Assembly: GCA_903883645.1 (NCBI GenBank)
Contig: CAISBR010000004.1
Location: 13,461-77,460 of the forward strand
Source of the DNA: an uncultured Myxococcales bacterium
Lineage (GTDB): Bacteria; Myxococcota_A; UBA9042
Length of the DNA: 64,000 bases
Direction: 5' to 3'
The position numbers were made by a program, and so were the translations under genes. Below the pieces are notes generated by a model. It saw only the letters and a program-made list of their open reading frames with translations. It was not told the origin of the DNA and ran no database searches. Positions 5,965-33,710 of the stretch are shown one piece after another (the first letter of the stretch is position 1; each line of letters opens with the position of its first letter).

Positions 5965-5997
5965 CTTCGCGACCCTGGGCAAGAAACCAACTGGGCT

Positions 5998-6060
5998 AAA
6001 AAACCGAAAGCCCGGAACGCGGTCCTACTCCAAAGAGTAAGGCGCGCCCGGGCTTACGGT
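5998..6060 (-). terminator. Intrinsic terminator of the tRNA operon (may also serve convergent prfB)
   Basis: Minus strand ACCGTAAGCCCGG...CCGGGCTTTCGGT imperfect stem with inner TACTC/GAGTA stem, followed by a T-run. Confidence 0.7.
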
Positions 6061-6061
6061 A

Positions 6062-6137
6062 TGGCGTCCCCAGCGGGAATCGAACCCGCGTTATCGGCGT
6101 GAAAGGCCGGTGTCCTAGGCCGCTAGACGATGGGGAC
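6062..6137 (-). tRNA. tRNA-Glu (TTC)
   Basis: GTCCCCA..TGGGGAC acceptor stem, anticodon loop CTTTCAC, GTTCGA T-loop, encoded CCA. Confidence 0.97.
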
Positions 6138-6138
6138 G

Positions 6139-6214
6139 TGGTGAGCCGGGAGGGGATCGAACCCTCGACCAACAGATTAAAAGTCTGCTGCTCTACCGAC
6201 TGAGCTACCGGCTC
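6139..6214 (-). tRNA. tRNA-Lys (TTT)
   Basis: GAGCCGG..CCGGCTC acceptor stem, anticodon loop CTTTTAA, encoded CCA. Confidence 0.97.
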
Positions 6215-6240
6215 GGTAGGTCGGCGAATCCGGAGACACT

Positions 6241-6292
6241 CTTGAGAAGTGTCCTTGAGAAGTGTCCTTGAGAAGTGTCCTTGAGAGGTGTC
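6241..6292. repeat. 13-bp tandem repeat x4 (CTTGAGAAGTGTC)
   Basis: Three exact copies plus one with a single mismatch, no spacers. Confidence 0.95.
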
Positions 6293-6336
6293 ACGTTGCG
6301 GTGGCCTAAGTCCGCGTGCCCGCGCAGGGCCGGCGA

Positions 6337-6365
6337 AGTTTAGAGACGATTGCCGGCAGCGTCAA
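6337..6365 (-). promoter_or_regulatory. Sigma70-type promoter of the tRNA operon
   Basis: TTGACG-N17-TAAACT followed by a GC-rich discriminator-like stretch. Confidence 0.7.
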
Positions 6366-6396
6366 GGGGGCTCGCTGGCAACGTCGCGTTCTGTAG

Positions 6397-6425
6397 TTGA
6401 CAGCGCGCAGCAATGACCGCACATT
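6397..6425 (+). promoter_or_regulatory. Putative sigma70-type promoter of lepA
   Basis: Perfect TTGACA, 17 nt, weak -10 CACATT. Confidence 0.45.
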
Positions 6426-6470
6426 GCGCGACGTTCCAGCCCGTCGCTGGCCCACTACCGCAGCGAGCCG

Positions 6471-8279
6471 ATGAAGGCCAACCACATCCGAAATTTTAGC
6501 ATTATCGCCCACATCGACCACGGCAAGTCGACGCTGGCGGACCGCATCCTCGAGCTGACTGGCGCCGTAGAAAAGCGCGATATGCAAGAGCAGTACCTCG
6601 ATTCGATGGATATCGAGCGCGAGCGCGGCATTACCATCAAGTCGCAGGCCGTGCGGCTGCACTATGTGGCCAAAGACGGCATCGACTACATGCTGCACCT
6701 GATCGACACGCCCGGACATGTGGATTTTCATTACGAAGTCTCGCGTTCGCTGGCGGCGTGCGAGGGTGCGCTGCTGGTGGTCGATGCGTCGCAAGGGGTC
6801 GAAGCGCAGACACTGGCCAATGTGTACCTGGCGCTCGATCAAGGGCTCGAATTGGTGCCCGTGATCAACAAGATCGACCTGCCCGCGGCCCGGCCCGACG
6901 AGGTGGTGCGCGAGATCGAAGAGGGTATCGGCATCGACGCCTCGGGCGCGGTGTTCGCTTCGGGCAAGACCGGCCTGGGTATTGTAGAGCTGCTCGAAGC
7001 GGTGATTGCCCACGTGCCGCCGCCCGAAGGTGACCCCGAAGCCCCGCTTCGCGCAATGGTTTTTGACAGCCAGTACGACAACTACCGCGGCGTGTTGGTG
7101 CAGGTTCGCATCATCGATGGCAGCGTGAAGAAGGGCGATCGCGTCTACTTCATGGAGTCGGGCAGCGAGTACGAGGTGCTCGAAGTCCGCATTCGCACTC
7201 CCAAAGATGTGATCGTCGATCAGCTGAGCTTTGGCGAGTCGGGCGTGCTGGTCTGCGGCATCAAGACCGTGCGCGATGTGCAAGTCGGCGAAACAATTAC
7301 GGGGGCCAAGCGCCGCGCCGAGCACGCGCTCAAGGGCTTCAAGAAAATTCAGCAGATGGTGTTCTCGGGCATCTTCCCGGTGGAATCGCACGATTACGAA
7401 AAGCTGCGCGACGCCATCGAAAAACTGGCGCTCAACGACTCGGCGTTTTCGTGGGAGCCCGAGACTAGCTCCGCGCTCGGCTTCGGTTTTCGCTGTGGTT
7501 TCTTAGGCATGCTGCACATGGAGGTGTTCCAAGAGCGGCTCGAGCGCGAGTTCGACGTCGACCTGATCACCACGGCGCCCAGTGTCGTGTATCATGTCTA
7601 CAAGAACGACAAGACCATGCTCGAAATCAGCAATCCCGGCGATCTGCCGCCCACGGGCGACATTGACCGCATCGAGGAGCCGATCGTGCGGGCGACGATC
7701 CACACGCCGACCGACCACATTGGGCCGATCGTCAAGCTGTGCACCGATCGCCGCGGTCACCAAAAAGACATGCGCTACATCTCGCAAACCCGCGTCATGC
7801 TCGAGTACGAGATTCCGCTGGCCGAGATCGTGTTCGACTTTTTTGACAAGCTGAAAACAGCGACGCGCGGCTACGCGAGCTTAGATTATGAATTCAAGAT
7901 GTTCCGTGCCGACGACCTGGTGCGACTCGACGTTTTGCTCCACAGCGACATCGTTGACGCCCTGAGCGTGATCGTCCACCGCGAAAAATCGTACGAAAAG
8001 GGCAAGGCCCTGGTGCATCGCCTGCGCAAAGTGATTCCGCGTCAGCAGTTCGACGTGGCGATCCAGGCGGCGGTGGGTGCTCGCATCATCTCGCGCGAGA
8101 CCGTCAAGGCTATGCGCAAAGATGTGACGGCCAAGTGCTATGGCGGCGATATCTCGCGGAAACGCAAGCTTTTAGAGCGGCAGAAAGAGGGCAAGAAGCG
8201 CATGAAGATGGTCGGCACGGTCGATGTGCCGCAAGAGGCGTTCTTGGCCGTACTGTCGAGCGACGACGATGACGATTAG
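6471..8279 (+). CDS. lepA: Elongation factor 4
   Basis: [43 protein letters not shown]. Confidence 0.98.
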
Positions 8280-21731: not shown

Positions 21732-22955
21732 ATGGAATTGCTGAGGTCGTTGCCAATGCCGCGTTGGGCCGCTATTGCCGGGGGACTTGGAGCGGGCGCG
21801 CTGGCGGCGCTGCTGGTCAATGGCCTACAACCGAGCAAGATACTTGACAAAACCTTGCCGATGCAGGCGATTTCGGAGCTGGATGGCAGGCTGAGCCAGG
21901 TTTGGCTGCAGTACTCGGCCGCGGCGCAAGCGGTGGTGGGGCCGGCGCAGCTCGAGTTCGTGCGGGCGCTGCCGGCGACGACGGCGCAGGTCTGGACGGT
22001 GGCGCGCGGCGAGGAAGCCAAGCAATTACGGAACTTTCTGAGCCATGGCGGGGTGACGCTAAACGCCCAGTCCCAGGTGATCGAGGTGCCCGGGCCGCTG
22101 ACGCCGTGGACCCGCGATCGGGCCCTGGCACTGCGCCGCGGCGGGCAGTTGGCGCTGCTAGTGCCGCCGGAACCGGGTGAGAGCTGGCCCGAGCGGCAGG
22201 GCGACTGGCACGCCGTGCAGTGGCTGGCAAGCGGGCGGCAGGGGACAAAGAGCCTAGAGCTGCCTATTGATTTTGACGCGGGCGACCTGATCTTGAGCGA
22301 CGAAGCGACGCTGTTTGACGCCAACTTACTGGCCAAAAACCGTGGGCGCGGTTTTGCGAATTTGGCGGAATTGGCCACGGCCGTGGCGGGTTGGACCGGG
22401 CGGCCGGCGCTGGCTTTGGGGCACGACGAGGGCGATGTGCCGCGCTACCACATGGCGATGTACGTGATGCCGCTGGGGCACAAGCGAGTGCTGGTGGGTG
22501 ATCCGCAGCTGGGGCGCGCACTTACTGGGCCTAGGTGGCAGCCCGGCGACCGCTCGCCCGACGACGATAGCCTGCTGCTGGCCGACGATTCGACGGTGAC
22601 TCAGGCGCGTTTTGACCGTGCAGCCAAAGACTTGCAAGCCCAAGGTTGGGCGGTGACGCGCGCGCCGGTGGTCGCTTTTGACGACCGCACCTACCTAAGC
22701 TACACCAATGTGGTCGCGGAGATCGGCGCTCAGGGGCCGCGGGTGTACCTGCCGCACTACGCGAGCGCGACCGACGCCGCCGATTCGGTGCTTGGCCGCC
22801 TAGACGCTGCGGGGCGTGCGCCGTGGCAGCGTGCGGGGTTCGCCGTCGTGCCGATTCATGTGGCCGGAGTGTGGCGACATCACGGAACAATCGGCTGCTT
22901 AGTCAATGTGTTGTGGCGCGGATCGCTGCCCGCAACGCCGGCAGTGTCGCGCTAG
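21732..22955 (+). CDS. Guanidino-modifying (agmatine/peptidylarginine deiminase-like) enzyme
   Basis: DAGDL, YHMAMY, SYTN and C-terminal HGTIGCL motifs of the pentein fold; N-terminal hydrophobic segment. Confidence 0.65.
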   Translation: MELLRSLPMPRWAAIAGGLGAGALAALLVNGLQPSKILDKTLPMQAISELDGRLSQVWLQYSAAAQAVVGPAQLEFVRALPATTAQVWTVARGEEAKQLRNFLSHGGVTLNAQSQVIEVPGPLTPWTRDRALALRRGGQLALLVPPEPGESWPERQGDWHAVQWLASGRQGTKSLELPIDFDAGDLILSDEATLFDANLLAKNRGRGFANLAELATAVAGWTGRPALALGHDEGDVPRYHMAMYVMPLGHKRVLVGDPQLGRALTGPRWQPGDRSPDDDSLLLADDSTVTQARFDRAAKDLQAQGWAVTRAPVVAFDDRTYLSYTNVVAEIGAQGPRVYLPHYASATDAADSVLGRLDAAGRAPWQRAGFAVVPIHVAGVWRHHGTIGCLVNVLWRGSLPATPAVSR

Positions 22956-23059
22956 GTGCGGTGCATCGCAGCAGGCGATTCTTGTGTCCGTGCCGCGGTC
23001 TGGGTAGCATGGCGGTAGCGGCTGGCGGCACAGGCACGCGGCGCCAAGGCGCAGTCAAT

Positions 23060-26000
23060 ATGCAAGGCCAGCACGGTCGGGGTCATTCTTTGAAGTACTT
23101 GTCTGTGATTAAGCACTTTACGGCCATGGTGGCGCTGGCAGCCCTAGCGGCCGGCTGCAGCGAAAACGTTGTCACCAGCGGCAGCAAGGCCTTGAGCGAC
23201 GCCAAAGCCGACCAGCAAGTGGTCGATCTGCCGCTGGCCGCCAGCAGCGATCAAGCGGCGTGGTTGTGCCCGGGCGGCTATGGCTGCGCGTGCGAAAACG
23301 ACGCTGCGTGCCCCAGTTCGGGCCTGTGCGTCGCCGACGGCAAGGGCCCGGCACACTGCGCGGTACCCTGCCCCGAGGGCTACTGTAGCGACGGCGAGGT
23401 GTGCCGACCGCTGCCCAGCGCGAAAGATGGCGGCAACTGGTGCATCGGCAAGACGGCCCACCTGTGCGATCCCTGCGCCACGACTGCGGATTGTGCCATT
23501 GCCGGCCACCCGCAGGCCCGCTGCGTCGACTATGGCAGCGACGGGCACTTCTGCGGCCTAGCCTGCCAGGGCGATGCCGAGTGCGGCGCGGGCTACCACT
23601 GCGGGCAAGTGAGCACAACAGATGGCAATTCGGCCATGCAGTGTGTCAAGAGCGGCGTTCAACCGGGCCAGCTGGGCGTGTGCGAGTGCAGCGCGCGTGC
23701 CAAGAGCCAAAAGCTTGAAACAGTATGCGGCGTAGGTACTTGCAAGGGCAAACGCAGCTGCAGCGACGCGGGCTTGGCGGCGTGCAGCGGCGCGGCACCG
23801 GGCAACGAAGAGTGCAACGGCCAAGACGACGACTGCGACGGCCAGACAGACGAGACCAGCTGCAGCGACAACAACCCTTGCACAATAGATAGTTGCGACC
23901 TATCCAAAGGCTGCAGCCACGCGCCCGCCGACAGTTTGCCTTGCTCCGACAAGACGGCGTGCACCGAGGGCGATGCCTGCAAGAACGGCGCGTGCCAGCC
24001 AGGCCCCGAGGTCAACTGCGACGACGCAAACCCATGCACCATCGAGACTTGTGACCCCATCAAGGGTTGCCAGACCAAGTTCAGCGACGGCAAGGCCTGC
24101 GACGACGGCGATGCCTGCACCAAAGACGAGGCGTGCAGCAGCGGCGCGTGCGCCAGCGGCAAGCCACTGATCTGCGACGACAAAAACCCTTGCACCGCCG
24201 ACACGTGCAGCGCCGGTGAATGCACCGCCACGCCGGTTGACGGCGCACCCTGCAGCGACGGCAGCGCCTGCACGGGCGCCGACACGTGCGCGGGCGGCAA
24301 ATGCGCCGGCACCACGCTGGTCTGCGACGACAAAAATGCCTGCACCATAGACAGTTGCGACCCTGCCAAGGGCTGCATCTATCTGCCCGGCCCCGCCACC
24401 GCCTGCGACGACGGCAACTTGTGCACCACCGGCGAGACCTGCCAAAGCGGCAACTGCACCGGCGGCACGACGCAAGCGTGCGCCAACGACAACGCGTGCG
24501 CCACCGCCGCGTGCCAGCCCGCGACCGGACTTTGCGCCATCAAAAAGAAGGCCGACGGCACCCTATGCAGCGACGGCAAGACCTGTACCGCCGAAGATCA
24601 TTGCGCTACGGGCGCTTGCGTGGCCAAGCTAAGCTGCGACGACAAGGACGCGTGCACCGCCGACCTCTGCGGCTTGAACGGCAACTGCACCCACGTGCCC
24701 ATTACGACGGGGAACTGCATACCAGCCGCCTGCGTCGGGGTCGACTGCGATGACAAAAATGGTTGCACGATCGATGGTTGCGACGGCAGCGGCTGCACCC
24801 ACACCGCGGCAGTGGGCCAAAGTTGCGACGACGCCAGCCTCTGCACGGTGGGCGACGTCTGCAGCCAGCAGGGCAAGTGCGCGGGTGCCAGCGTGATCTG
24901 CGGCGACGATAACCCTTGCACAACCGATAGTTGCGACCCACTCAAGGGCTGCAGCAACACCGAGAACAGCCTGCCTTGCGACTTGGGCGGCTGCCAGGCG
25001 GGCGCGTGCACTGCGGGAAGCTGCGTGGGCACGGGGCAAGTCGGCTGCGACGATAAGAGTCCTTGCACGAGCGACAGTTGTGAGGCCAGCGGCTGCGTAC
25101 ACACCCCCACCGGCGACGGCACCGGCTGCGACGATAGCGACGCCTGCAGCAGCGGCGACACGTGCAAAGGCGGGGTATGCGCCGGCACCGCGCTCGATTG
25201 CACCCTGCCCGGCAACCCTTGCGCCGTTGGCCAATGCGAGGGCAGCCCCGGCCAATGCACCGTAACCAAGCTAAACGACGGCACATCGTGCGACGACAGC
25301 AACACCTGCACCAAGGCCGACAGCTGCGCAAATGGCGCTTGCGGCGGCAGCGCGGTCGACTGCGACGACAAAAATGCTTGCACTACAGACAGTTGCGACA
25401 AGACGGCTGGCTGCCAACACGCCAACGCCAGCGACGGCAGCAGCTGCAGCGACAGCGACGCCTGCACGGTCAGCGACGCCTGCACCAGCGGCACCTGCAG
25501 CGGCACGGCCAAGGTCTGCGACGACAAGAATCCTTGCACCAGCGATGGTTGCGACCTCTCGGTCGGCTGCACGGTCGCGGCAGTGAGCGATGGCCAAACC
25601 TGCGACGACGGCGACACCTGCACCCTGAGCGATGCCTGCCAAAGCGGCAAATGTACAGGTAATCTTGGCGCAGACGCGGTCAGCTCGCTAGCCGGTGCGG
25701 GCAGCTCGGGCTACATAAACGGCAAGGGCGCGGCGGCCAAGTTCACCCTGCCCTCGGCCATCGCAGTGGGCGCGGACGGCACGTTGTACATCGCAGACGC
25801 CGCGGCCAATGGGGCGTATATCCGAAAAGTACTGCAAGATGGCACTGTTACCAACCTTGCCGGCAAGGGAATCGACGGTTTTGCCGATGCCAGCGGCGCT
25901 TTGGCCCAGTTTTGGAACCCCGCCGGCCTCGCGGTCGATGCCTCGGGCACGGTCTACGTGGCTGACCGGTTTAACCAGCGTATTCGCAAGATTACCGCAA

Positions 26001-26692
26001 TTGGGGTGGTCACTACGCTCGCTGGCGACGCGGCCGAGCCGGGCTTCTTGGATACCAAAGCCATCGGCGGCTACCAAGACGGCCAAGGCACGGCGGCGCG
26101 CTTTGACGAACCCGCCGCGATCGCGCTGGGCCCCGACGGCAAGCTGTACGTCGCCGAGGCCGCCAACCACAAGATCCGCGTGGTCGATAGCGACGGCACG
26201 GTCACGACCCTCGCCGGCAGCAGCCAAGGCTACCTCGACGGCACGGGCACTAGCGCCAAGTTCGACGCACCGCAGGGCATCGCTGTGGCGGCGAACGGCA
26301 CTGTCTACGTCGCCGACACGGGCAACAACCGCATCCGCGCCATCAGCGGCGGGGTAGTAACTACCTTTGCCGGAACGGGAATCTACGGATACGCCGACGA
26401 CCTGCTGCAAAACGCCTGCATCGCCGCCCCAGCCGGCATGAGCATCGGCAGCGACGGCACGCTGTACGCAACGGACGCATTCCACACCATCCGCGCGCTC
26501 AGCAGCACGGTCGTGACGACACTGGCGGGCATCGGCGGCGCGTCGGGCTACCTGGATGCGGCGCCGCTGCAAGCGAAGTTCAATGGCCCGCTCGGCGTGG
26601 TGTGGGCGGGCAAGGGGCTGTGGTTCGTAGCGGATACGCTCAACTTCCGCGTGCGCAAGCTTCTTTCGCCCACGCTGGCTTGCAAACCGTAG
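23060..26692 (+). CDS. Large lipoprotein: Dictyostelium-type Cys repeats plus C-terminal NHL beta-propeller
   Basis: Lipobox LAAGC; EECNGQDDDCDGQTDE; many CDDxNxCTxDxC repeats; NHL blades (G.AVDASGTVYVAD..N.RIR). Confidence 0.85.
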   Translation: MQGQHGRGHSLKYLSVIKHFTAMVALAALAAGCSENVVTSGSKALSDAKADQQVVDLPLAASSDQAAWLCPGGYGCACENDAACPSSGLCVADGKGPAHCAVPCPEGYCSDGEVCRPLPSAKDGGNWCIGKTAHLCDPCATTADCAIAGHPQARCVDYGSDGHFCGLACQGDAECGAGYHCGQVSTTDGNSAMQCVKSGVQPGQLGVCECSARAKSQKLETVCGVGTCKGKRSCSDAGLAACSGAAPGNEECNGQDDDCDGQTDETSCSDNNPCTIDSCDLSKGCSHAPADSLPCSDKTACTEGDACKNGACQPGPEVNCDDANPCTIETCDPIKGCQTKFSDGKACDDGDACTKDEACSSGACASGKPLICDDKNPCTADTCSAGECTATPVDGAPCSDGSACTGADTCAGGKCAGTTLVCDDKNACTIDSCDPAKGCIYLPGPATACDDGNLCTTGETCQSGNCTGGTTQACANDNACATAACQPATGLCAIKKKADGTLCSDGKTCTAEDHCATGACVAKLSCDDKDACTADLCGLNGNCTHVPITTGNCIPAACVGVDCDDKNGCTIDGCDGSGCTHTAAVGQSCDDASLCTVGDVCSQQGKCAGASVICGDDNPCTTDSCDPLKGCSNTENSLPCDLGGCQAGACTAGSCVGTGQVGCDDKSPCTSDSCEASGCVHTPTGDGTGCDDSDACSSGDTCKGGVCAGTALDCTLPGNPCAVGQCEGSPGQCTVTKLNDGTSCDDSNTCTKADSCANGACGGSAVDCDDKNACTTDSCDKTAGCQHANASDGSSCSDSDACTVSDACTSGTCSGTAKVCDDKNPCTSDGCDLSVGCTVAAVSDGQTCDDGDTCTLSDACQSGKCTGNLGADAVSSLAGAGSSGYINGKGAAAKFTLPSAIAVGADGTLYIADAAANGAYIRKVLQDGTVTNLAGKGIDGFADASGALAQFWNPAGLAVDASGTVYVADRFNQRIRKITAIGVVTTLAGDAAEPGFLDTKAIGGYQDGQGTAARFDEPAAIALGPDGKLYVAEAANHKIRVVDSDGTVTTLAGSSQGYLDGTGTSAKFDAPQGIAVAANGTVYVADTGNNRIRAISGGVVTTFAGTGIYGYADDLLQNACIAAPAGMSIGSDGTLYATDAFHTIRALSSTVVTTLAGIGGASGYLDAAPLQAKFNGPLGVVWAGKGLWFVADTLNFRVRKLLSPTLACKP

Positions 26693-27558: not shown

Positions 27559-29016
27559 CTAGATGCCGATCAGCACCTTGAGCAGCCTCTCAATCGGCTT
27601 GCCGTAGGGCGGATTGGTCATGCCGGCGGCGTTCATGCGGCTTTGGTAGAAGACGCCTTTGCAGTGCGACAGGGTGTCGAAGCCCACCTTGCCGTGGTAC
27701 GCGCCCATACCAGCCGGGCCAACTCCGCCAAAGGGCAGTTCTTCTTGGGCAATATGCAAGATGGTGTCGTTGACGGTGACGCCGCCCGAAGTGGTGCGCT
27801 CGACCACCGTGCCGATGCGGCCACTGTCGCGATCGAAGTAGTACAAGGCGAGGGGCCGCGGCCGGGCGTTCACGTAAGCAATGGCGCTGTCTAAGGAATC
27901 GTACTCGACGAGCGGCAGAATCGGCCCAAAAATCTCGTCTTGCAGCACGGCCATCGTGTCGTTTGCGCCAATCACCAGGGTGGGCACCAGCTTGCGCGCC
28001 GCGGGTTCAAAGGTCTCGCCGGCAGGATTGAGCTCGACCAGCTGTGCGCCACCGGCCTTGGCCTCGGCCAGATAGCCCTGCAAACGCTCGAATTGACGGT
28101 CGTTAATCACCGCACAGTAGTCGGGGCTCTGCGCCAGGGTCGGCCGCAGACGCGCGATCACGGCCTGGCAAGCCTGCACAAACGCTTGGGTCTGGCCGCG
28201 CGGCACCAGCACATAGTCGGGGGCGATGCAGGTCTGGCCGGCGTTCAGCAGCTTGCCCACTAAGATACGTTCGGCTGCTTTTTCAAGAGGATACGACCCA
28301 TGCACGATAACCGGCGACTTGCCGCCAAGCTCGAGCGTCACCGGTACCAAGTTCTCGGCGGCGGCCCTCATCACGGCGTGGCCCACGCGCGTCGATCCGG
28401 TAAATACAATATGATCGAGGGGTAAGCGGCACAGCGCCTCGGCCACCTCCGGCCCGCCCTGGACCACCTGCACCTGATCGGGGGCAAAGACCTCGCGGAT
28501 CATGCGCGCCAGCAGCTCGGACGTCTGCGGCGTAAACTCCGAAGGCTTGATGATCACGCGGTTACCCGCCGCCAGCGCACACACCAGCGGGGCCAGCGCC
28601 AGCTGCACGGGGTAGTTCCACGGCGCCAGAATCGCCACCACGCCCAGCGGCTGCGGATGCACCTTGTTGCTGCCCGGCTGAAAAGCCCAGTGCACCGGCA
28701 TGGTTCGCGGCCGTGCCCAGCGCGCTAGGTGCTGCCGCGCGTGCTTTAGGCCCGCCAGAGTAGGAAACAGGTCGGCCAGCAGCGTCTCGTGGCGCGAGCG
28801 GGTGCCAAAATCGGCCTGGATGGCGGCGACAATGTCTTCGGTGTGGGCGCGAATCACCCGTTCCAGGGCATCGAGCCACGCGCGCCGGCAGGCGACACTG
28901 GGCGGCGCTTCGCTGCGACTCAGCTGGTGCATCTTGGCGAAGGTTGTACGCATTTCGACGATGGCGGGCGACTCGTCGCGGTGGTCGTCTAAGTGGGCAA
29001 GCGTAGCGGTACTCAT
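27559..29016 (-). CDS. Aldehyde dehydrogenase (coniferyl-aldehyde dehydrogenase-like)
   Basis: PWNYP, FTGS, LELGGKSP, NAGQTCIAPDY, EIFGP, LPFGGVG; SD GGAGG. Confidence 0.93.
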   Translation of the reverse strand: MSTATLAHLDDHRDESPAIVEMRTTFAKMHQLSRSEAPPSVACRRAWLDALERVIRAHTEDIVAAIQADFGTRSRHETLLADLFPTLAGLKHARQHLARWARPRTMPVHWAFQPGSNKVHPQPLGVVAILAPWNYPVQLALAPLVCALAAGNRVIIKPSEFTPQTSELLARMIREVFAPDQVQVVQGGPEVAEALCRLPLDHIVFTGSTRVGHAVMRAAAENLVPVTLELGGKSPVIVHGSYPLEKAAERILVGKLLNAGQTCIAPDYVLVPRGQTQAFVQACQAVIARLRPTLAQSPDYCAVINDRQFERLQGYLAEAKAGGAQLVELNPAGETFEPAARKLVPTLVIGANDTMAVLQDEIFGPILPLVEYDSLDSAIAYVNARPRPLALYYFDRDSGRIGTVVERTTSGGVTVNDTILHIAQEELPFGGVGPAGMGAYHGKVGFDTLSHCKGVFYQSRMNAAGMTNPPYGKPIERLLKVLIGI

Positions 29017-29058
29017 GGAGCCTCCTGGCAAGAAGATGGCGGATTCTGTGCGGTTTGA

Positions 29059-29694
29059 CTAGAGCGAGGTAAGAATCTGCAGCAACTGTGCGGCATCTGC
29101 GGCCGTATGGCGAAGATGCGCAACCTCGGCCGGGCGAAAGCCCCACTGTACCCCCACGGGCCGCATCCCGGCATTGACGGCCGTTTGCAGGTCGACTTCG
29201 GTATCGCCCACAAACCAGCAATCTGCAGGCTGTACACCGAGTTGCCGGCAGATATCGAGCGCCGCCGCCGGATCGGGCTTGCGCGGCCAGTCGGGGCGCT
29301 GCCCCACCACCGCACGCCACGGAACTCGGCCAAAGTAGTGCTGAACCAGGGCCTGGGTCGCCGGGTGAGGCTTATTCGACAGCACCGCGAGCGGCACGCC
29401 GGCCAGCACCAGCTGATCGAGCACGGACTCTAGGCCCGGATAGACACGAGTCTGGTCGCACATCCTTTGTGTATACAAGATCTTGTAGCGGGCTAGCCAC
29501 TCTAACTGCGGCTCGGCCGGCGCTGTCGCCCGCTGCAGCAGCATCTCGGCCCCTTCGCCAACAAAGTGGTAATACTCGGCCACGGGGTGCACAGGCAGGT
29601 TCACTTCGGCGAGCAGTGCGTTCGCCGCCGCCGCGATGTCGGCCACGGAGTCGATGAGCGTGCCGTCGAGGTCAAAGATCACCGCACGGGGCAT
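29059..29694 (-). CDS. HAD-family hydrolase (phosphoglycolate phosphatase-like)
   Basis: FDLDGTL, LSNK, KPDP, VGDTEVD. Confidence 0.9.
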   Translation of the reverse strand: MPRAVIFDLDGTLIDSVADIAAAANALLAEVNLPVHPVAEYYHFVGEGAEMLLQRATAPAEPQLEWLARYKILYTQRMCDQTRVYPGLESVLDQLVLAGVPLAVLSNKPHPATQALVQHYFGRVPWRAVVGQRPDWPRKPDPAAALDICRQLGVQPADCWFVGDTEVDLQTAVNAGMRPVGVQWGFRPAEVAHLRHTAADAAQLLQILTSL

Positions 29695-29715: not shown

Positions 29716-31527
29716 TTAAGCCGAGAGTTTGCGGGCAATTAGCATCCATGCCAGCGGCAGCACAAACGCACCGATGGTGGCAAGTGCCCCCCAATTGCGC
29801 AAGCGGGCGGCCAGATCGTCGCGACCGACAGCATGGGCGCGGTACTCGGCGATAACTTGCAGCGTGGCGATGCCGATCGAGGCATAGGCGGCAAAATACG
29901 ACCAATCGACGACCGTCAGGTAGCCGACTTCGGGCAGGTGGCCGGCCGTATTGACCTGCAACTCGACCGCGCATAGCAGGGCCAACACCGTTAAAAGCAG
30001 CTTGGCATCTAGCTTTTCGGCGGGGATGAGGCTCGCTGCCAGCGCCATTAGCACCATCAGCAGCAGGGGCGCCAAGTCGGCCACGGCAAAACGCAGCACT
30101 TCGCGGCGCACATCGACAACAAAGTTGTAACGACTAAAGAATTCGGTGGGCCCATACTGCGACTTGACCTCTTCGGAGCGCACCGCCACCAACTGCCAGT
30201 CGTGCAGCGAGAAGTTAGGGCCCAGGCGCTGGTCGAGGGTCAGCTTGGCCTCGGGGTGCCAGCGCGTCTCGCAGTGGAACACCAGCTGCCCGTACTGCAA
30301 CAGAGGGTGTTCAAACGCTAATTCGAAGCGCTGCGCATCGAACGGGTAGGCGTGCAGGTCAAAATGGCTGCGGGCGCGCCCGTGCATCCGCCAGTTGAGG
30401 CTGTGCCACGGACCGTGCGGCTCGTAGCCGTTGGGGGTGATCTCGACCTCGTCGGCGTTCATCACCTCGAACGGCCGCGGATCTTCGGGACCCATGCGCG
30501 GATCGAGCCAGCGCAGCTCAAGCGTCGCATCAAAGGTAAAGGTGCCTTTTTGCAGGTCAATCGCGCTAATCGCAATCAGCCAAACCGTTACGCGCACATC
30601 GATGGGCTTGTCGAGCGGCCCACCGCGGGCATAGGCATCGGCGGCACCCAGATGCAGGGGCAGCGGCGAGGGCATGGCGGCGGTGGCGCGCTGGAGACTG
30701 CCCAGACCGGGATCGGCGGTGCGCAGTAAATCGCTTTGATTCCAAATGGCTTCGACCAGATCGTCGACCTGCAGGCGCGGCAAGGCAGCCCGCCCCACCA
30801 GCACCTGCGGAACGGACAGCGTCACCACCTGTTTGTCGCCAAGCTTTTGAAATTGAGCGCGATCCACGGTCGCCACCTGCCACGGCCAGGCCGACTCGGG
30901 CAGTTCTTTGGTCGACGGCAGCGACAGCCAGTGATCGCCCGCCGCCAAAGCCGCTGTAAGGCTCGCATCCTCGGGCGCCACCACGGCAAACGCGGCATCG
31001 ACCTGCCCGGCGTGCAGCGCGGCCAGAGGGTCGGCGGACATCTGCACTTGCACCGCAGCCCGCGCCAGGCCGGCGTGCTCAAGCAGCACCAGCAGCGCCT
31101 CGCGATCGCCCGTCGCCGTCGCCGCCAGGGCCACCCGCTTACCCTGCAACTGGTCGAGCGTCTTCAGATCTTGCCGCACCAGCACGGCCAGGTAGGTGGT
31201 ATGCAGCACGGCAATGGCCCGCAAGTCCTTGTGCGGCTCTTGGAAGCGCCCGGTACCCAGCCACGCCGCCCGCGCCAAGTCAGCCCGCGCTACGGCCAGC
31301 GCATGACCCGGCTGAGCGAGCAATTTCTCTAGATTATCCAGCGATCCCGCAGTGGCAGTGGGCGTCACTACCTCGCCGCCGGGCACCGCCTGCGCCGCCT
31401 GCGCCAGACCCGCCGCCAAGTGCGCCTCGGCCTTGCCTGCCGGCCCCGAAAAGATGGGCAGCGCGTGCGCCGCTGGGGCCAGCAGCAGCAGCGCAAAGAG
31501 CAGGCAAGCCTGGGCCCATGCTCTCAT
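29716..31527 (-). CDS. TAXI solute-binding domain fused to a pentameric ligand-gated ion channel (GLIC/ELIC-like)
   Basis: N-half TAGSLDN, LQGKRVA, GQVDAAF, PLHLGA; C-half LRWLDPR, FDLHAYPFDAQ Pro-loop, four TM helices, LPEVGYLT M2-M3 loop. Confidence 0.85.
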   Translation of the reverse strand: MRAWAQACLLFALLLLAPAAHALPIFSGPAGKAEAHLAAGLAQAAQAVPGGEVVTPTATAGSLDNLEKLLAQPGHALAVARADLARAAWLGTGRFQEPHKDLRAIAVLHTTYLAVLVRQDLKTLDQLQGKRVALAATATGDREALLVLLEHAGLARAAVQVQMSADPLAALHAGQVDAAFAVVAPEDASLTAALAAGDHWLSLPSTKELPESAWPWQVATVDRAQFQKLGDKQVVTLSVPQVLVGRAALPRLQVDDLVEAIWNQSDLLRTADPGLGSLQRATAAMPSPLPLHLGAADAYARGGPLDKPIDVRVTVWLIAISAIDLQKGTFTFDATLELRWLDPRMGPEDPRPFEVMNADEVEITPNGYEPHGPWHSLNWRMHGRARSHFDLHAYPFDAQRFELAFEHPLLQYGQLVFHCETRWHPEAKLTLDQRLGPNFSLHDWQLVAVRSEEVKSQYGPTEFFSRYNFVVDVRREVLRFAVADLAPLLLMVLMALAASLIPAEKLDAKLLLTVLALLCAVELQVNTAGHLPEVGYLTVVDWSYFAAYASIGIATLQVIAEYRAHAVGRDDLAARLRNWGALATIGAFVLPLAWMLIARKLSA

Positions 31528-33710
31528 TTCCACGCCTCGGGCAACTGCAAGCCAAACTGCTGCACCAAGAAGGTCAGCCGGTCGGTGGCCTCGTCGATCT
31601 GCTTGGTGGTGGGCTTGCCGGCCCCATGCCCAGCGCGCGTCTCGATCCGCACCCGAATCGGCGCCGGACCGCCCTGAGCCGCCTGCAACGCCGCTGTAAA
31701 CTTGAACGAATGCGCCGGCACCACCCGATCGTCGTGGTCGCCCGTGGTCACCAGCGTGGCGGGATAGGCCGTACCCTTGTGCAAGTTATGAAGAGGACTG
31801 TACTTGTATAGCCACTCGAAGGCCTTGGCATCGGCACTGCTGCCGTACTCGGGCACCCAGCCCCAGCCGATGGTGAACAGGTGGTAGCGCAGCATGTCCA
31901 TCACCCCCACCGCCGGCAGAGCAGCGCCAAATAATTCAGGCCGTTGCGCTAGACACGCGCCGACGAGCAGCCCGCCGTTGCTACCGCCCGCGATCGCCAA
32001 ATGCGCCGAGGTCGTCCACTTCTCGCGGGTGAGCAGCTCGGCCGAGGCAATGAAGTCGTCAAAAACATTCTGCTTCTTTCCTAGCTGCCCAGCTTGATGC
32101 CAAGCCTCGCCAAACTCGGCACCGCCGCGCAGCACCGCCACCGCCAGCACGCCGCCCGCCTCGATCCAAGCTTGCAGGTCGGGCTTGTAAAACGGCGTCA
32201 TCTCTACAGAAAACCCGCCATAGCCGTACAGGTAGGCCGGCGCCGAGCCATCGCGGGGCAGGTCGCTGCGGGCAGTGACAAAAATCGGCACCCGGGTACC
32301 ATCTTTGCTAGTCGCATAGCGCAGTTGCGTACTGTACTTTTCGGCGGGCAGACCGCGCTTGGCGTCGAAACGCACCTGCAGCTCGCCCTTGTCGAGGTTG
32401 GCGTGGTATACCCGCGCCGGCGCCAAGAAGTCTACGTATGCAAAGAACAAATTGGCATCACCCGCGTGGCCCGACAGCCCCACCACCGAGCCCAAACGCG
32501 GAAACGTCGGCGCGGGCAGCGGCTTGCCCTGATAGTCCACGAATTCGAGCTGATGCGAGGCATCGACCAGCTTGCCCAAGACGATACCCTTGCCCGCCAA
32601 CACCGCGAACGACAAGGTAGAATCCGCCTCGCCCTGCACTTGCCGCCACCCCGCAGGCAGCGGCCCCACCGGCTTGTCGCTGTCGAGATTTGCCGCCTTG
32701 TGCAGGTCGAGCGCCAGCAGCCGGCCCCGCGGCGCACCCCAATCACTGCGCAAGAACAGCTGGTTACTAGCCACACCCGCCACTTCGAACGCGCCGCCAA
32801 AGCCGCTCGCCAGCTGCCGATTGGGACCCAGACCTTTGGTCGTAATTTCGCGAACATCCAAGCCATTCTTCGACTCGGCGCCGCGCGAGGTGGTCAAAAG
32901 CCACCAGTGCCCGTCGTCGCTCACCTCGACGCCAAAGCCCCACTCGGCCTGCGCGGCGTTCTCGTGCACCACCGCGTCGGCCGACTGCGGCGTGCCCAAT
33001 TTGTGGAAGCACACCTTCTGGAACTTGTTGACACCTGTAAGCGTTTCGCCCGCTTTGGGCGCGTCGTAGCGGGAATACCAAAAGCCGCTGCCGTCGGGAT
33101 GCCAGGCGATCGAGCTAAACTTGACCCATTGCAGTACGTCGGGCCGATCGGCGCCGCTGTCGACCTCGCGCACGTGGATCTCGTTCCAGTCCGAGCCGCC
33201 GCTCGCCAGGGCATAGCCCAGCAACTTGCCGTCGTCACTGGGCGAAATCGTCTGCAAGAACAGGGTGCCGTCGCCCGCCGCCCGATTGGGATCGTACAGA
33301 ACCTTGCACGTGCGCTCGTCTTGCGGCGCCCAGCACAGCACGGCCTGATTCTGCAGCCCGTCGTTGTGCCGCCAAAATGCCCGCCCGCCCCGCAGCGTAG
33401 GCGCCGTTTCTTTCGGAAAATCCCAGATCTGCGCGAGATGCCGCGCCAACACCGGCCGCTGTGGCACCCGATCGAGCAGCGCCCGCGTGGCCAGGTTCTG
33501 CGCTTGCACCCACGCCTGCGTCTCGGCACTGTCTTGCTCGAGCCAGCGGTACGGGTCGGCGACTTTGTGGCCATGGTAGTCGTCAACCTGGTCGCTGGTG
33601 CGCGTCGGCGGCGGCTGCGGCAGCTCGGATTTCGCAGGCGTCGCAGGCTGTTGAGCAGGCGAGGAACAGGCGACGGCAAGGGCAAGCAACCAAAGCAGCG
33701 ATGGGCGCAT
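31524..33710 (-). CDS. Prolyl oligopeptidase (S9A) lipoprotein
   Basis: Lipobox AVAC; ADPYRWLE, YGYGGF, GGSNGG, DDRV, AGHG triad motifs. Confidence 0.95.
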   Translation of the reverse strand: MRPSLLWLLALAVACSSPAQQPATPAKSELPQPPPTRTSDQVDDYHGHKVADPYRWLEQDSAETQAWVQAQNLATRALLDRVPQRPVLARHLAQIWDFPKETAPTLRGGRAFWRHNDGLQNQAVLCWAPQDERTCKVLYDPNRAAGDGTLFLQTISPSDDGKLLGYALASGGSDWNEIHVREVDSGADRPDVLQWVKFSSIAWHPDGSGFWYSRYDAPKAGETLTGVNKFQKVCFHKLGTPQSADAVVHENAAQAEWGFGVEVSDDGHWWLLTTSRGAESKNGLDVREITTKGLGPNRQLASGFGGAFEVAGVASNQLFLRSDWGAPRGRLLALDLHKAANLDSDKPVGPLPAGWRQVQGEADSTLSFAVLAGKGIVLGKLVDASHQLEFVDYQGKPLPAPTFPRLGSVVGLSGHAGDANLFFAYVDFLAPARVYHANLDKGELQVRFDAKRGLPAEKYSTQLRYATSKDGTRVPIFVTARSDLPRDGSAPAYLYGYGGFSVEMTPFYKPDLQAWIEAGGVLAVAVLRGGAEFGEAWHQAGQLGKKQNVFDDFIASAELLTREKWTTSAHLAIAGGSNGGLLVGACLAQRPELFGAALPAVGVMDMLRYHLFTIGWGWVPEYGSSADAKAFEWLYKYSPLHNLHKGTAYPATLVTTGDHDDRVVPAHSFKFTAALQAAQGGPAPIRVRIETRAGHGAGKPTTKQIDEATDRLTFLVQQFGLQLPEAWK

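Follow-up and report, generated by a model that had tools for sequence, protein, structure and literature searches.

A TAXI-domain fusion of a bacterial pentameric ligand-gated ion channel homologue, and a clade of its relatives with hydrophobic 2' and 6' positions and an invariant glutamate at 13' of the predicted pore helix

The stretch of DNA analysed here (the window) is a 64,000-nucleotide segment of contig CAISBR010000004.1 from an uncultured Myxococcales bacterium. The gene of interest lies on the minus strand at 29716..31533 and, from the open reading frame (ORF) list and its translation, encodes a fusion of a TAXI-type solute-binding domain with an ion channel of the pentameric ligand-gated type (pLGIC). 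It has 605 codons when read from the GTG at 31533 and 603 from the ATG at 31527, with the stop codon at 29718-29716. The minus-strand translation of 29916-30009, which an initial annotation of the sequence had described as an atypical pore helix, is DAKLLLTVLALLCAVELQVNTAGHLPEVGYL, corresponding to residues 509-539 of the 605-residue product. A public protein of 603 amino acids (P0003) is 100% identical to the window protein over the part searched, and the existence of this twin, together with the long open frame, indicates that the peptide of the pore helix (M2) is real. The protein is very probably a secreted, inner-membrane protein that carries a TAXI domain and a full pLGIC module, with M2 in the canonical register and Glu524 at position 13'. 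Its assembly into pentamers is predicted from the sequence.

The coding sequence begins with a putative signal peptide of approximately residues 1-24 (31462..31533; this and all further features of the gene are on the minus strand), which has a hydropathy peak of 2.20 over residues 3-31 and ends in AHA before LPIF, a putative cleavage site judged from the sequence. Residues 41-301 (30631..31413) make up a periplasmic solute-binding domain of the TAXI type (NMT1_3), identified by Pfam (PF16868, 107.9 bits against a cut-off of 27), by NCBIfam (TIGR02122, TRAP_TAXI, 101.3 bits against a cut-off of 84.35) and by matches of the window protein to the solved TAXI proteins 4ddd, 9ibo, 8s4j and 1us4 with E values from 7e-12 to 4e-9. 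A linker of about five residues separates the end of this domain from the first beta strand of the channel. The extracellular beta-sandwich of the pLGIC module follows at residues 307-478 (30100..30615), recognised from alignments to pLGIC chains in the PDB (query residues 307-581) and from a near cut-off match to Pfam Neur_chan_LBD, which scores 23.3 bits, just below the cut-off of 26, in the window protein and 28-33 bits in its relatives. Curated pLGIC models are approached and not reached, the NCBIfam model LGIC_1 scoring 47 bits against a cut-off of 500. In phmmer searches against solved chains, the best matches are a GABA-A alpha1 chimera (E 3e-10), DeCLIC (7e-10), ELIC (about 1e-8) and GLIC (4e-6), and the pLGIC matches cover both the extracellular and the membrane domains, spanning query residues 307-597. 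As the whole C-terminal 300 amino acids are homologous to solved pLGICs, the likeness of M2 to a channel pore helix is not a product of chance.

Sequence motifs of the family are found along the module. The bacterial counterpart of the Cys-loop, the Pro-loop Y396-P397-F398-D399 (30337..30348), was recognised by conservation in 29 sequences, P397 and D399 being invariant and Y396 and F398 nearly so. The M1 helix (residues 480-503, 30025..30096) aligns without gaps to M1 of GABA-A alpha1 and has a hydropathy peak of 2.32; its proline, P489, is invariant, and the pre-M1 arginine R477 and the Leu-Pro turn between M2 and M3 are conserved. M2 itself, defined by register alignments and conservation, extends over residues 509-534 (29932..30009). 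M3 (residues 538-564, 29842..29922) aligns gaplessly to M3 of both GABA-A alpha1 and DeCLIC with a hydropathy below the threshold of 1.5, and M4 (residues 581-601, 29731..29793), which has a hydropathy peak of 2.01, aligns to M4 of DeCLIC and carries F590 and P593, both invariant across the clade described below. The hydropathy scan detects the signal peptide, M1, M2 and M4. M3 and M4 are joined by a link of approximately 16 residues, and there is no cytoplasmic output domain. A second pLGIC gene was not found in the window with tblastn. The protein thus has the homologous beta-sandwich and four-helix domain of the family, the Pro-loop, the M1 proline, a basic residue at 0', Leu9' and the Leu-Pro turn, but in place of the small or hydroxyl-bearing residues typical of 2' and 6' and the small uncharged residue typical of 13' it has Leu2', Leu6' and Glu13'.

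The positions of M2 are D-2', K0', L2', L6', L9', E13', Q15', V16', G20', L22' and P23', with D509 at -2', K511 at 0', L513 at 2', L517 at 6', L520 at 9', E524 at 13', V527 at 16' and L533-P534 forming the Leu-Pro pair. The codon of Glu524 is GAG (29962..29964), and the three leucine rings are encoded within 29974..29997 (L2' CTT at 29997-29995, L6' TTG at 29985-29983 and L9' CTA at 29976-29974). The assignments at -2', 2', 6', 9', 13' and 16' are those of the initial annotation, and are borne out by the alignments to GABA-A alpha1 and DeCLIC. The former are gapless from M1 through M3 and place D509 under Pro-2', K511 under Arg0' and E524 under Thr13'. The latter pairs L520, E524 and V527 with chain residues 554, 558 and 561; in the pore-lining M2 of DeCLIC, L554 is 9' and F561 is 16' (PMC9897478). 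For GLIC, where the register was taken from the alignment end-points (query 307-581, chain 12-294) and not letter by letter, the offset of 287 puts D509 and E524 on GLIC 222 and 237, which are Glu-2' and Ala13', two of seven lumen-exposed rings (Sauguet et al., PMC3590989). The GLIC string from which the annotation had worked agrees with that publication at the seven ring positions, to which the comparison was confined.

Relative to 9', an ideal helix places 2' at +20, 6' at +60, 13' at +40 and 16' at -20 degrees. Glu524, being within 40 degrees of Leu9', therefore falls on the same face as this universal gate residue. It is improbable that M2 is instead rotated or kinked, so that the carboxylate does not face the lumen and packs against M1, M3 or the adjacent M2. 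Polar contacts between helices do appear to matter in this M2, as shown by the invariance of Thr4' and Gln15' throughout the clade, and a small rotation of the pore helix is known to take part in the opening of Orai (PMC5321763). Such a rearrangement has, however, to be set against the gapless M1-M3 alignment to solved pLGICs, anchored by K0' and Leu22'-Pro23', against the retention of Leu9' at its small angular distance from 13', and against the pattern of covariation: 13' covaries with 2' and 6', on the same face of the helix, and not with positions on its back.

The distribution of this M2 was examined at three levels. A word-indexed search with query residues 300-605 returned 29 proteins, of which 27 (45-90% identity), like the window protein, have D-2', K0', L2', L6' and E13'; the 28th (26% identity) has Ala13'. 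When 1.84 billion representatives were searched exhaustively with HMMER, 1370 relatives were obtained at E <= 0.001, with a sharp drop in identity, from 43% to 36%, after the ninth match in the list. The best 150 of the 1370 relatives were combined with the word-search set into an M2 alignment of 172 rows, 30 within the clade and 142 outside it. E13', the conservation of which had been set beforehand as the refuting test, is present in all 30 clade rows (43-90% identity), as are D-2', K0', L2', L6' and Q15'. Species-dereplicated genomes, searched with two patterns, one for the Pro-loop and one for M2, showed the same M2 pattern, E13' included, in 20 of 20 clade loci, mostly from metagenome-assembled genomes of Myxococcota. 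Three of these loci (L008, L009 and L010) come from bins titled "uncultured Enterobacteriaceae", and their channel genes nest among Myxococcota sequences, L010 being nearly the same locus as L011 and L014 of Myxococcales; these bin labels look unreliable.

Within the clade, conservation along the protein is highest in M2, where -2' and 0' to 6' are invariant. In 28 clade sequences with 38-84% identity over the full length and 45-90% over the channel module, the invariant set comprises D-2', K0', L1'-L6', E13' and Q15'. In the window and the 20 loci taken together, E13' is encoded by GAG in 15 cases and by GAA in six, while L2' uses four codons and L6' three; these synonymous changes at retained residues imply that the residues, and not just the DNA, are under selection. 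The invariant basic residues within and adjoining the membrane domain (R477, K511 and R565) lie at the ends of the membrane and not at the depth of 13'. Asp-2' is present in 30 of the 30 clade rows and Glu20' in 25. The remaining five rows differ at 20' (G531 in the window protein, 29941-29943): the window protein and the two relatives nearest to it have Gly, P0006 has Ala and a single row has Asp. With Gly20', the window protein therefore has Asp-2' and Glu13' as its only charged pore-face residues.

Outside the clade, the common pattern is a different one, in keeping with the background given in the initial annotation, namely that 2' and 6' are usually small or polar and 13' usually uncharged. 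Of the 142 outside rows, 122 have G, A, S or T at 2' and 117 have T or S at 6'; Leu9' is found in 117 and Ala13' in 110. Just four of these rows have Glu13', and in all four both 2' and 6' are bulky and hydrophobic. In the genome searches, the 50 further pLGIC M2 segments without gaps, from which three gapped segments had been set aside, included not one with an acidic 13'.

Phylogenetic analyses indicate that the combination of Glu13' with hydrophobic 2' and 6' is recurrent. Searches that started from two of the four outside proteins with Glu13' revealed a second populated E13' lineage of six proteins, from Planctomycetota where named, that has L2', W6', F9' and E13', and a singleton, P0059, with I2', F6', L9' and E13', whose nearest kin have C2', L6' and G13'. 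These kin (P0035, P0176, P0177 and P0178) represent a third non-canonical pore within the wider group of TAXI-pLGIC fusions, with C2', L6', L9', N10' and G13', that is a hydrophobic 6' without the glutamate. In trees built without the M2 columns, E13' requires four changes, both on a FastTree tree of 171 rows and on an IQ-TREE tree of 53 rows. In the latter, the two halves of the W6' lineage each adjoin a canonical A13' protein, with support of 93 and 98. A single clade for all E13' rows is rejected (log-likelihood difference, delta lnL, 177.7; approximately unbiased (AU) test, p 2.9e-45). As the W6' subgroups perhaps have one origin, the safe count is three appearances, which puts the pore pattern in three or more separate lineages. 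Hydrophobic residues at 2' and 6' move together with 13' in four of four independent contrasts. A scan of some 300 columns for positions that set both populated E13' lineages apart from 15 canonical sisters returned few: residue 318 in the extracellular domain, and -4', 2', 6', 11' and 13' in M2. Leucine rings under a glutamate ring are thus probably a real functional variant of the pore.

The TAXI domain, which the initial annotation had not recognised, places the window protein in a superclade of TAXI-pLGIC fusions with otherwise canonical pores. Most members of the clade's sister group are such fusions with the ordinary pore G2', T6', L9' and A13', and of 19 sister representatives 13 carry PF16868. 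One canonical sister aligns collinearly with the window protein along 600 residues, through both the TAXI domain and the linker (31% identity, E 3e-69), from which it follows that the fusion is older than the pore variant. Within the clade the N-terminal domain is kept in 13 of 29 rows, and its presence changes approximately four times on the tree; in unfused members the signal peptide directly precedes the first beta strand. The idea that unfused members make use of a TAXI protein encoded next to them was rejected, as no NMT1_3 match was found in the scanned neighbouring ORFs of the 10 unfused loci (93 of 103 candidate ORFs around L001-L020 were scanned, the 10 left out being mostly antisense or distant). 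Since unfused members keep the pore without a scanned TAXI neighbour, the unusual pore is independent of the TAXI domain.

This independence bears on an explanation of Glu13' as a pH switch instead of a selectivity site, with periplasmic pH gating or modulating the channel with or without a TAXI ligand. Five carboxylates crowded beside the 9' gate would have raised pKa values; once protonated they would let the hydrophobic gate collapse, and once deprotonated their repulsion would wet the upper pore. The conservation and placement of E13' would fit such a switch equally well, the clade has no invariant basic partner at the depth of 13', unfused members with neither a TAXI domain nor a neighbouring TAXI gene have the same pore, and a proton-activated bacterial pLGIC exists in GLIC (PMC3590989). 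GLIC, however, senses protons without any mid-pore acid, and the hydrophobic 2' and 6' that accompany each appearance of E13' would be left unexplained. We regard a pH switch as unlikely, though a credible contender.

Fused members share 25 invariant TAXI residues, including R83, R105, H294 and R303, and the TAXI domain is therefore under selection. According to a 2023 survey, the only liganded structure of this Pfam family binds glutamate (PMC10443332). No TRAP membrane-component family was detected among 13 ORFs of the window (19720-44213) or the 93 neighbouring ORFs of L001-L020. The TAXI-pLGIC fusion proteins carry only the database name "TAXI family TRAP transporter solute-binding subunit", which, the TAXI domain being covalently joined to a channel, describes just half of the protein. 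In the extracellular domain of the channel (30100-30615), E356, N359, R382, E408-H409-P410, Y460 and R468 are invariant in fused and unfused clade members, which hints that this domain may have a ligand or ion site of its own besides the TAXI domain.

Other binding domains are found in the wider family. Extensions of at least 300 amino acids after M4 are present in 40 of 170 aligned relatives, and all six of those scanned (P0049, P0052, P0055, P0058, P0077 and P0044) are binding domains of the SBP_bac_5 (peptide/nickel) type. P0069 has an N-terminal Peripla_BP_6/ANF_receptor domain, a fusion of the PBP-I type. Together, the TAXI, SBP_bac_5 and Peripla_BP_6 fusions imply that binding proteins from at least three families have joined pLGICs, and at both ends. 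Among distant relatives there are also tandem pLGIC genes with near-identical M2, at 6001-6759 and 7640-8329 of L040 and at 5976-6515 and 8116-8748 of L068.

The channel gene is the second of four tightly packed genes on the minus strand between 27559 and 33710. Upstream of it is a prolyl oligopeptidase of peptidase family S9 (31524..33710; Pfam Peptidase_S9_N 3e-88, Peptidase_S9 1e-56), and downstream are a HAD-family phosphatase (29059..29694; Pfam HAD_2 1.7e-30; 139 bits with the NCBIfam phosphoglycolate phosphatase model, under its cut-off of 180) and an aldehyde dehydrogenase (27559..29031; Pfam Aldedh 4e-86, the best NCBIfam model being far under its cut-off). The stop codon of the peptidase overlaps the channel ATG at 31527, and the HAD gene starts 21 nucleotides past the channel stop. 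Among the clade loci, the peptidase is kept in L002-L005, the HAD gene in L001-L004 and the dehydrogenase in L002-L004, a gene order that is common to the nearest relatives, fused and unfused, and is not seen in the rest of the clade. Scans for promoters and terminators gave sites no more numerous than in shuffled sequences. Farther away, at 22823-26692 on the plus strand, is an ORF of 1289 amino acids that combines repeats of the Dictyostelium CTDC type with others resembling NHL/teneurin; in L012, L015, L016 and L020 the channel gene is flanked by comparable large proteins with repeats (Dicty_CTDC, FG-GAP, LTD/TSP3).

The neighbourhood is relevant to the idea that the pore is a conduit for a neutral species, in which the glutamate ring would recruit and deprotonate ammonium or an amine and the uncharged form would cross the leucine tunnel. 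This sequence of recruitment, deprotonation and crossing is that of Amt-type proteins, and the architecture of the pore, with an outer acidic ring, a long hydrophobic path and Asp-2' at the inner end, is what would suit it. As the pLGIC family offers no precedent and there are no amine- or nitrogen-related genes nearby, we consider a neutral conduit very improbable.

We tentatively propose that a solute gates the window protein and that it conducts cations through a pore re-patterned along Orai-like lines, the glutamate ring serving as a cation or proton station above a long hydrophobic gate. A small solute, probably carboxylate-bearing, would close the periplasmic TAXI clamshell, and the movement would travel through the extracellular domain of the channel and the M2-M3 Leu-Pro turn to the pore. 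There, leucines take the place of the hydroxyl rings at 2' and 6' that normally hydrate the permeant ion, and the position a turn above the 9' gate, alanine in relatives, would present five carboxylates as a ring, the sole polar station inside the membrane-spanning pore. This ring would compensate for the lost hydroxyls by binding and selecting a cation, most likely a divalent ion with protons competing, and its occupancy or protonation would decide whether the leucine tunnel from 2' to 9' wets and conducts. The expected behaviour is that of a cation channel of low conductance with a strong dependence on divalent ions or pH. Asp-2' and the clade's Glu20' point to cations, as they resemble the Glu-2' and Glu19' rings of GLIC (PMC3590989). 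Conduction, ion selectivity and ligand class are here all predictions drawn from sequence comparison.

In GLIC, the hydroxyls of Thr2' and Ser6' organise water for ion passage. The GLIC mutants S6'V and S6'G are expressed and pentameric and give no current, and simulations show dewetting from 2' to 9' (PMC3590989). By this precedent, leucines at 2', 6' and 9' should form a long hydrophobic barrier, which would call for a polar station in compensation. The mutants would equally suit a non-conducting or nearly silent receptor, with a permanently dewetted pore, that acts as a solute sensor or scaffold and uses Glu13' for assembly or to hold a structural cation. The Trp6' and Phe9' of the parallel lineage, and the polar 2' and 6' rings that are the rule in the outside relatives (122 and 117 of the 142), are compatible with such a receptor, yet a dead pore would not be expected to be the most conserved stretch of its protein, nor to keep a cation-type Asp-2' ring in every clade row. 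With M3 and M4 joined by so short a link and no cytoplasmic output domain, a non-conducting pLGIC would also have no evident way to signal. A silent receptor seems unlikely to us.

Several considerations weigh against the solute-gated cation channel that we propose. The pore with Leu2' and Leu6' may, on the analogy with GLIC, simply not conduct, and the Trp6' of the parallel lineage looks even more occlusive. The exposure of Glu524 to the lumen is deduced from homology and ideal-helix geometry. The loss of Glu20' in the window protein and its nearest kin weakens the argument for a cation funnel in this particular protein. The coupling of 13' with 2' and 6' is also not strict in both directions: P0035 and P0176-P0178 combine C2' and L6' with Gly13', P0071 and P0075 have V6' with Ala13', and P0144 has L2' and M6' with Ala13'. 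The four contrasts are short of significance (sign test, p 0.125). Treating the W6' lineage as one group costs 29.2 lnL units (AU p 0.05), so that it possibly had one origin. An alternative history is one early gain of E13' followed by many losses, in which case each loss would still be paired with a return to polar 2' and 6'. As to the ligand, a carboxylate-type class would be suggested for the TAXI domain by one liganded structure of the Pfam family, and the neighbouring peptidase, HAD phosphatase and aldehyde dehydrogenase point to no ion or ligand. The broader claim, that on at least three occasions bacterial pLGIC pores were rebuilt to an Orai-like design, highly selective for a divalent ion (Ca2+ or Mg2+) or for protons and opened in the fused forms by metabolites through the TAXI domain, is doubtful on present evidence.

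The M2 helices of pLGICs are among the best-studied pore helices in biology, and hydroxyls at 2' and 6' and a small uncharged residue at 13' have been deemed near-universal. Here is a natural clade that breaks all three rules together, with a pattern that is invariant down to 43% identity and that recurs in separate lineages. It is a ready-made experiment on the trade-off among hydrophobic gating, pore wetting and charge selectivity, and it would provide a first way into the function of pLGICs with fused solute-binding domains, which are now labelled merely as transporter subunits. If the glutamate ring confers selectivity for divalent ions or protons, it would constitute a new ion-selectivity class in the pLGIC family. 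If the proposed channel is real, Myxococcota and Planctomycetota would have a candidate device for direct metabolite-to-Ca2+/H+ signalling, and the need for hydroxyl rings at 2' and 6' in pLGIC permeation would have a natural counter-example. Should the pore be silent, the family would gain its first natural pseudo-channel.

Fusions of bacterial pLGICs with binding proteins have been known since 2005 (PMC549065), and a TAXI fusion with a Glu13' pore is apparently undescribed. In a literature search whose coverage excluded most subscription journals, no paper linking TAXI solute-binding domains with pLGICs was found, nor was a survey of the N-terminal domains of prokaryotic pLGICs retrieved; in the pLGIC texts checked there was no acidic 13', the two "E13" matches among them being journal page numbers. 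In Jaiteh et al. 2016 (PMC4795631), text on binding domains at the N terminus or in the periplasm was looked for and not found. Bacterial pLGICs with extra periplasmic ligand-binding domains are described as acting as chemoreceptors by Tasneem et al. 2005 (PMC549065), in whose text, as far as consulted, TAXI fusions and the pore variant go unmentioned.

Compared with characterised systems, the window protein shares with GLIC the homologous extracellular and four-helix domains, the acidic -2', hydrophobic 9' and 16', the Leu-Pro turn and the lack of a large cytoplasmic domain. It differs in having Leu, Leu and Glu where GLIC has Thr2', Ser6' and Ala13' (PMC3590989), and in having a TAXI domain, which GLIC does not. 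DeCLIC, likewise multidomain and bacterial, and modulated by calcium, scores best of the solved relatives from M2 to M4 (E 1.7e-4 when the membrane domain is taken on its own). DeCLIC is the only structurally solved pLGIC with an extra N-terminal domain (PMC9897478, PMC12664993). That domain, however, consists of two jelly-roll lobes and not a solute-binding clamshell (PMC12664993), the alignment begins at query residue 390, and DeCLIC has Ala at 13' and Phe at 16'. A multidomain pLGIC of the DeCLIC type is excluded, as the N-terminal domain of the window protein is TAXI rather than jelly-roll. The canonical TAXI-pLGIC fusions, such as P0037, are collinear with the window protein but have the pore G2', T6', L9' and A13', and are themselves uncharacterised.

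A parallel to the pore itself is found in an unrelated channel. In Orai1, a ring of E106 forms the Ca2+ filter above the pore-lining V102, F99 and L95 of a dewetting gate (PMC5321763), and this spacing of -4, -3 and -4 is the same as that from 13' to 9', 6' and 2' in the window protein. A sequence relation to Orai was not found, none of the 60 best among 236 PDB matches being an Orai protein. Orai channels have an unrelated fold, assemble as hexamers, are gated from the cytoplasm by STIM1 and have a basic inner pore, whereas the window protein is presumed to be a pentamer, has an acidic inner mouth in Asp-2' and, as proposed, would be gated from the periplasm. An Orai-like pore logic in these bacterial proteins would have been reached by convergence, not by descent.

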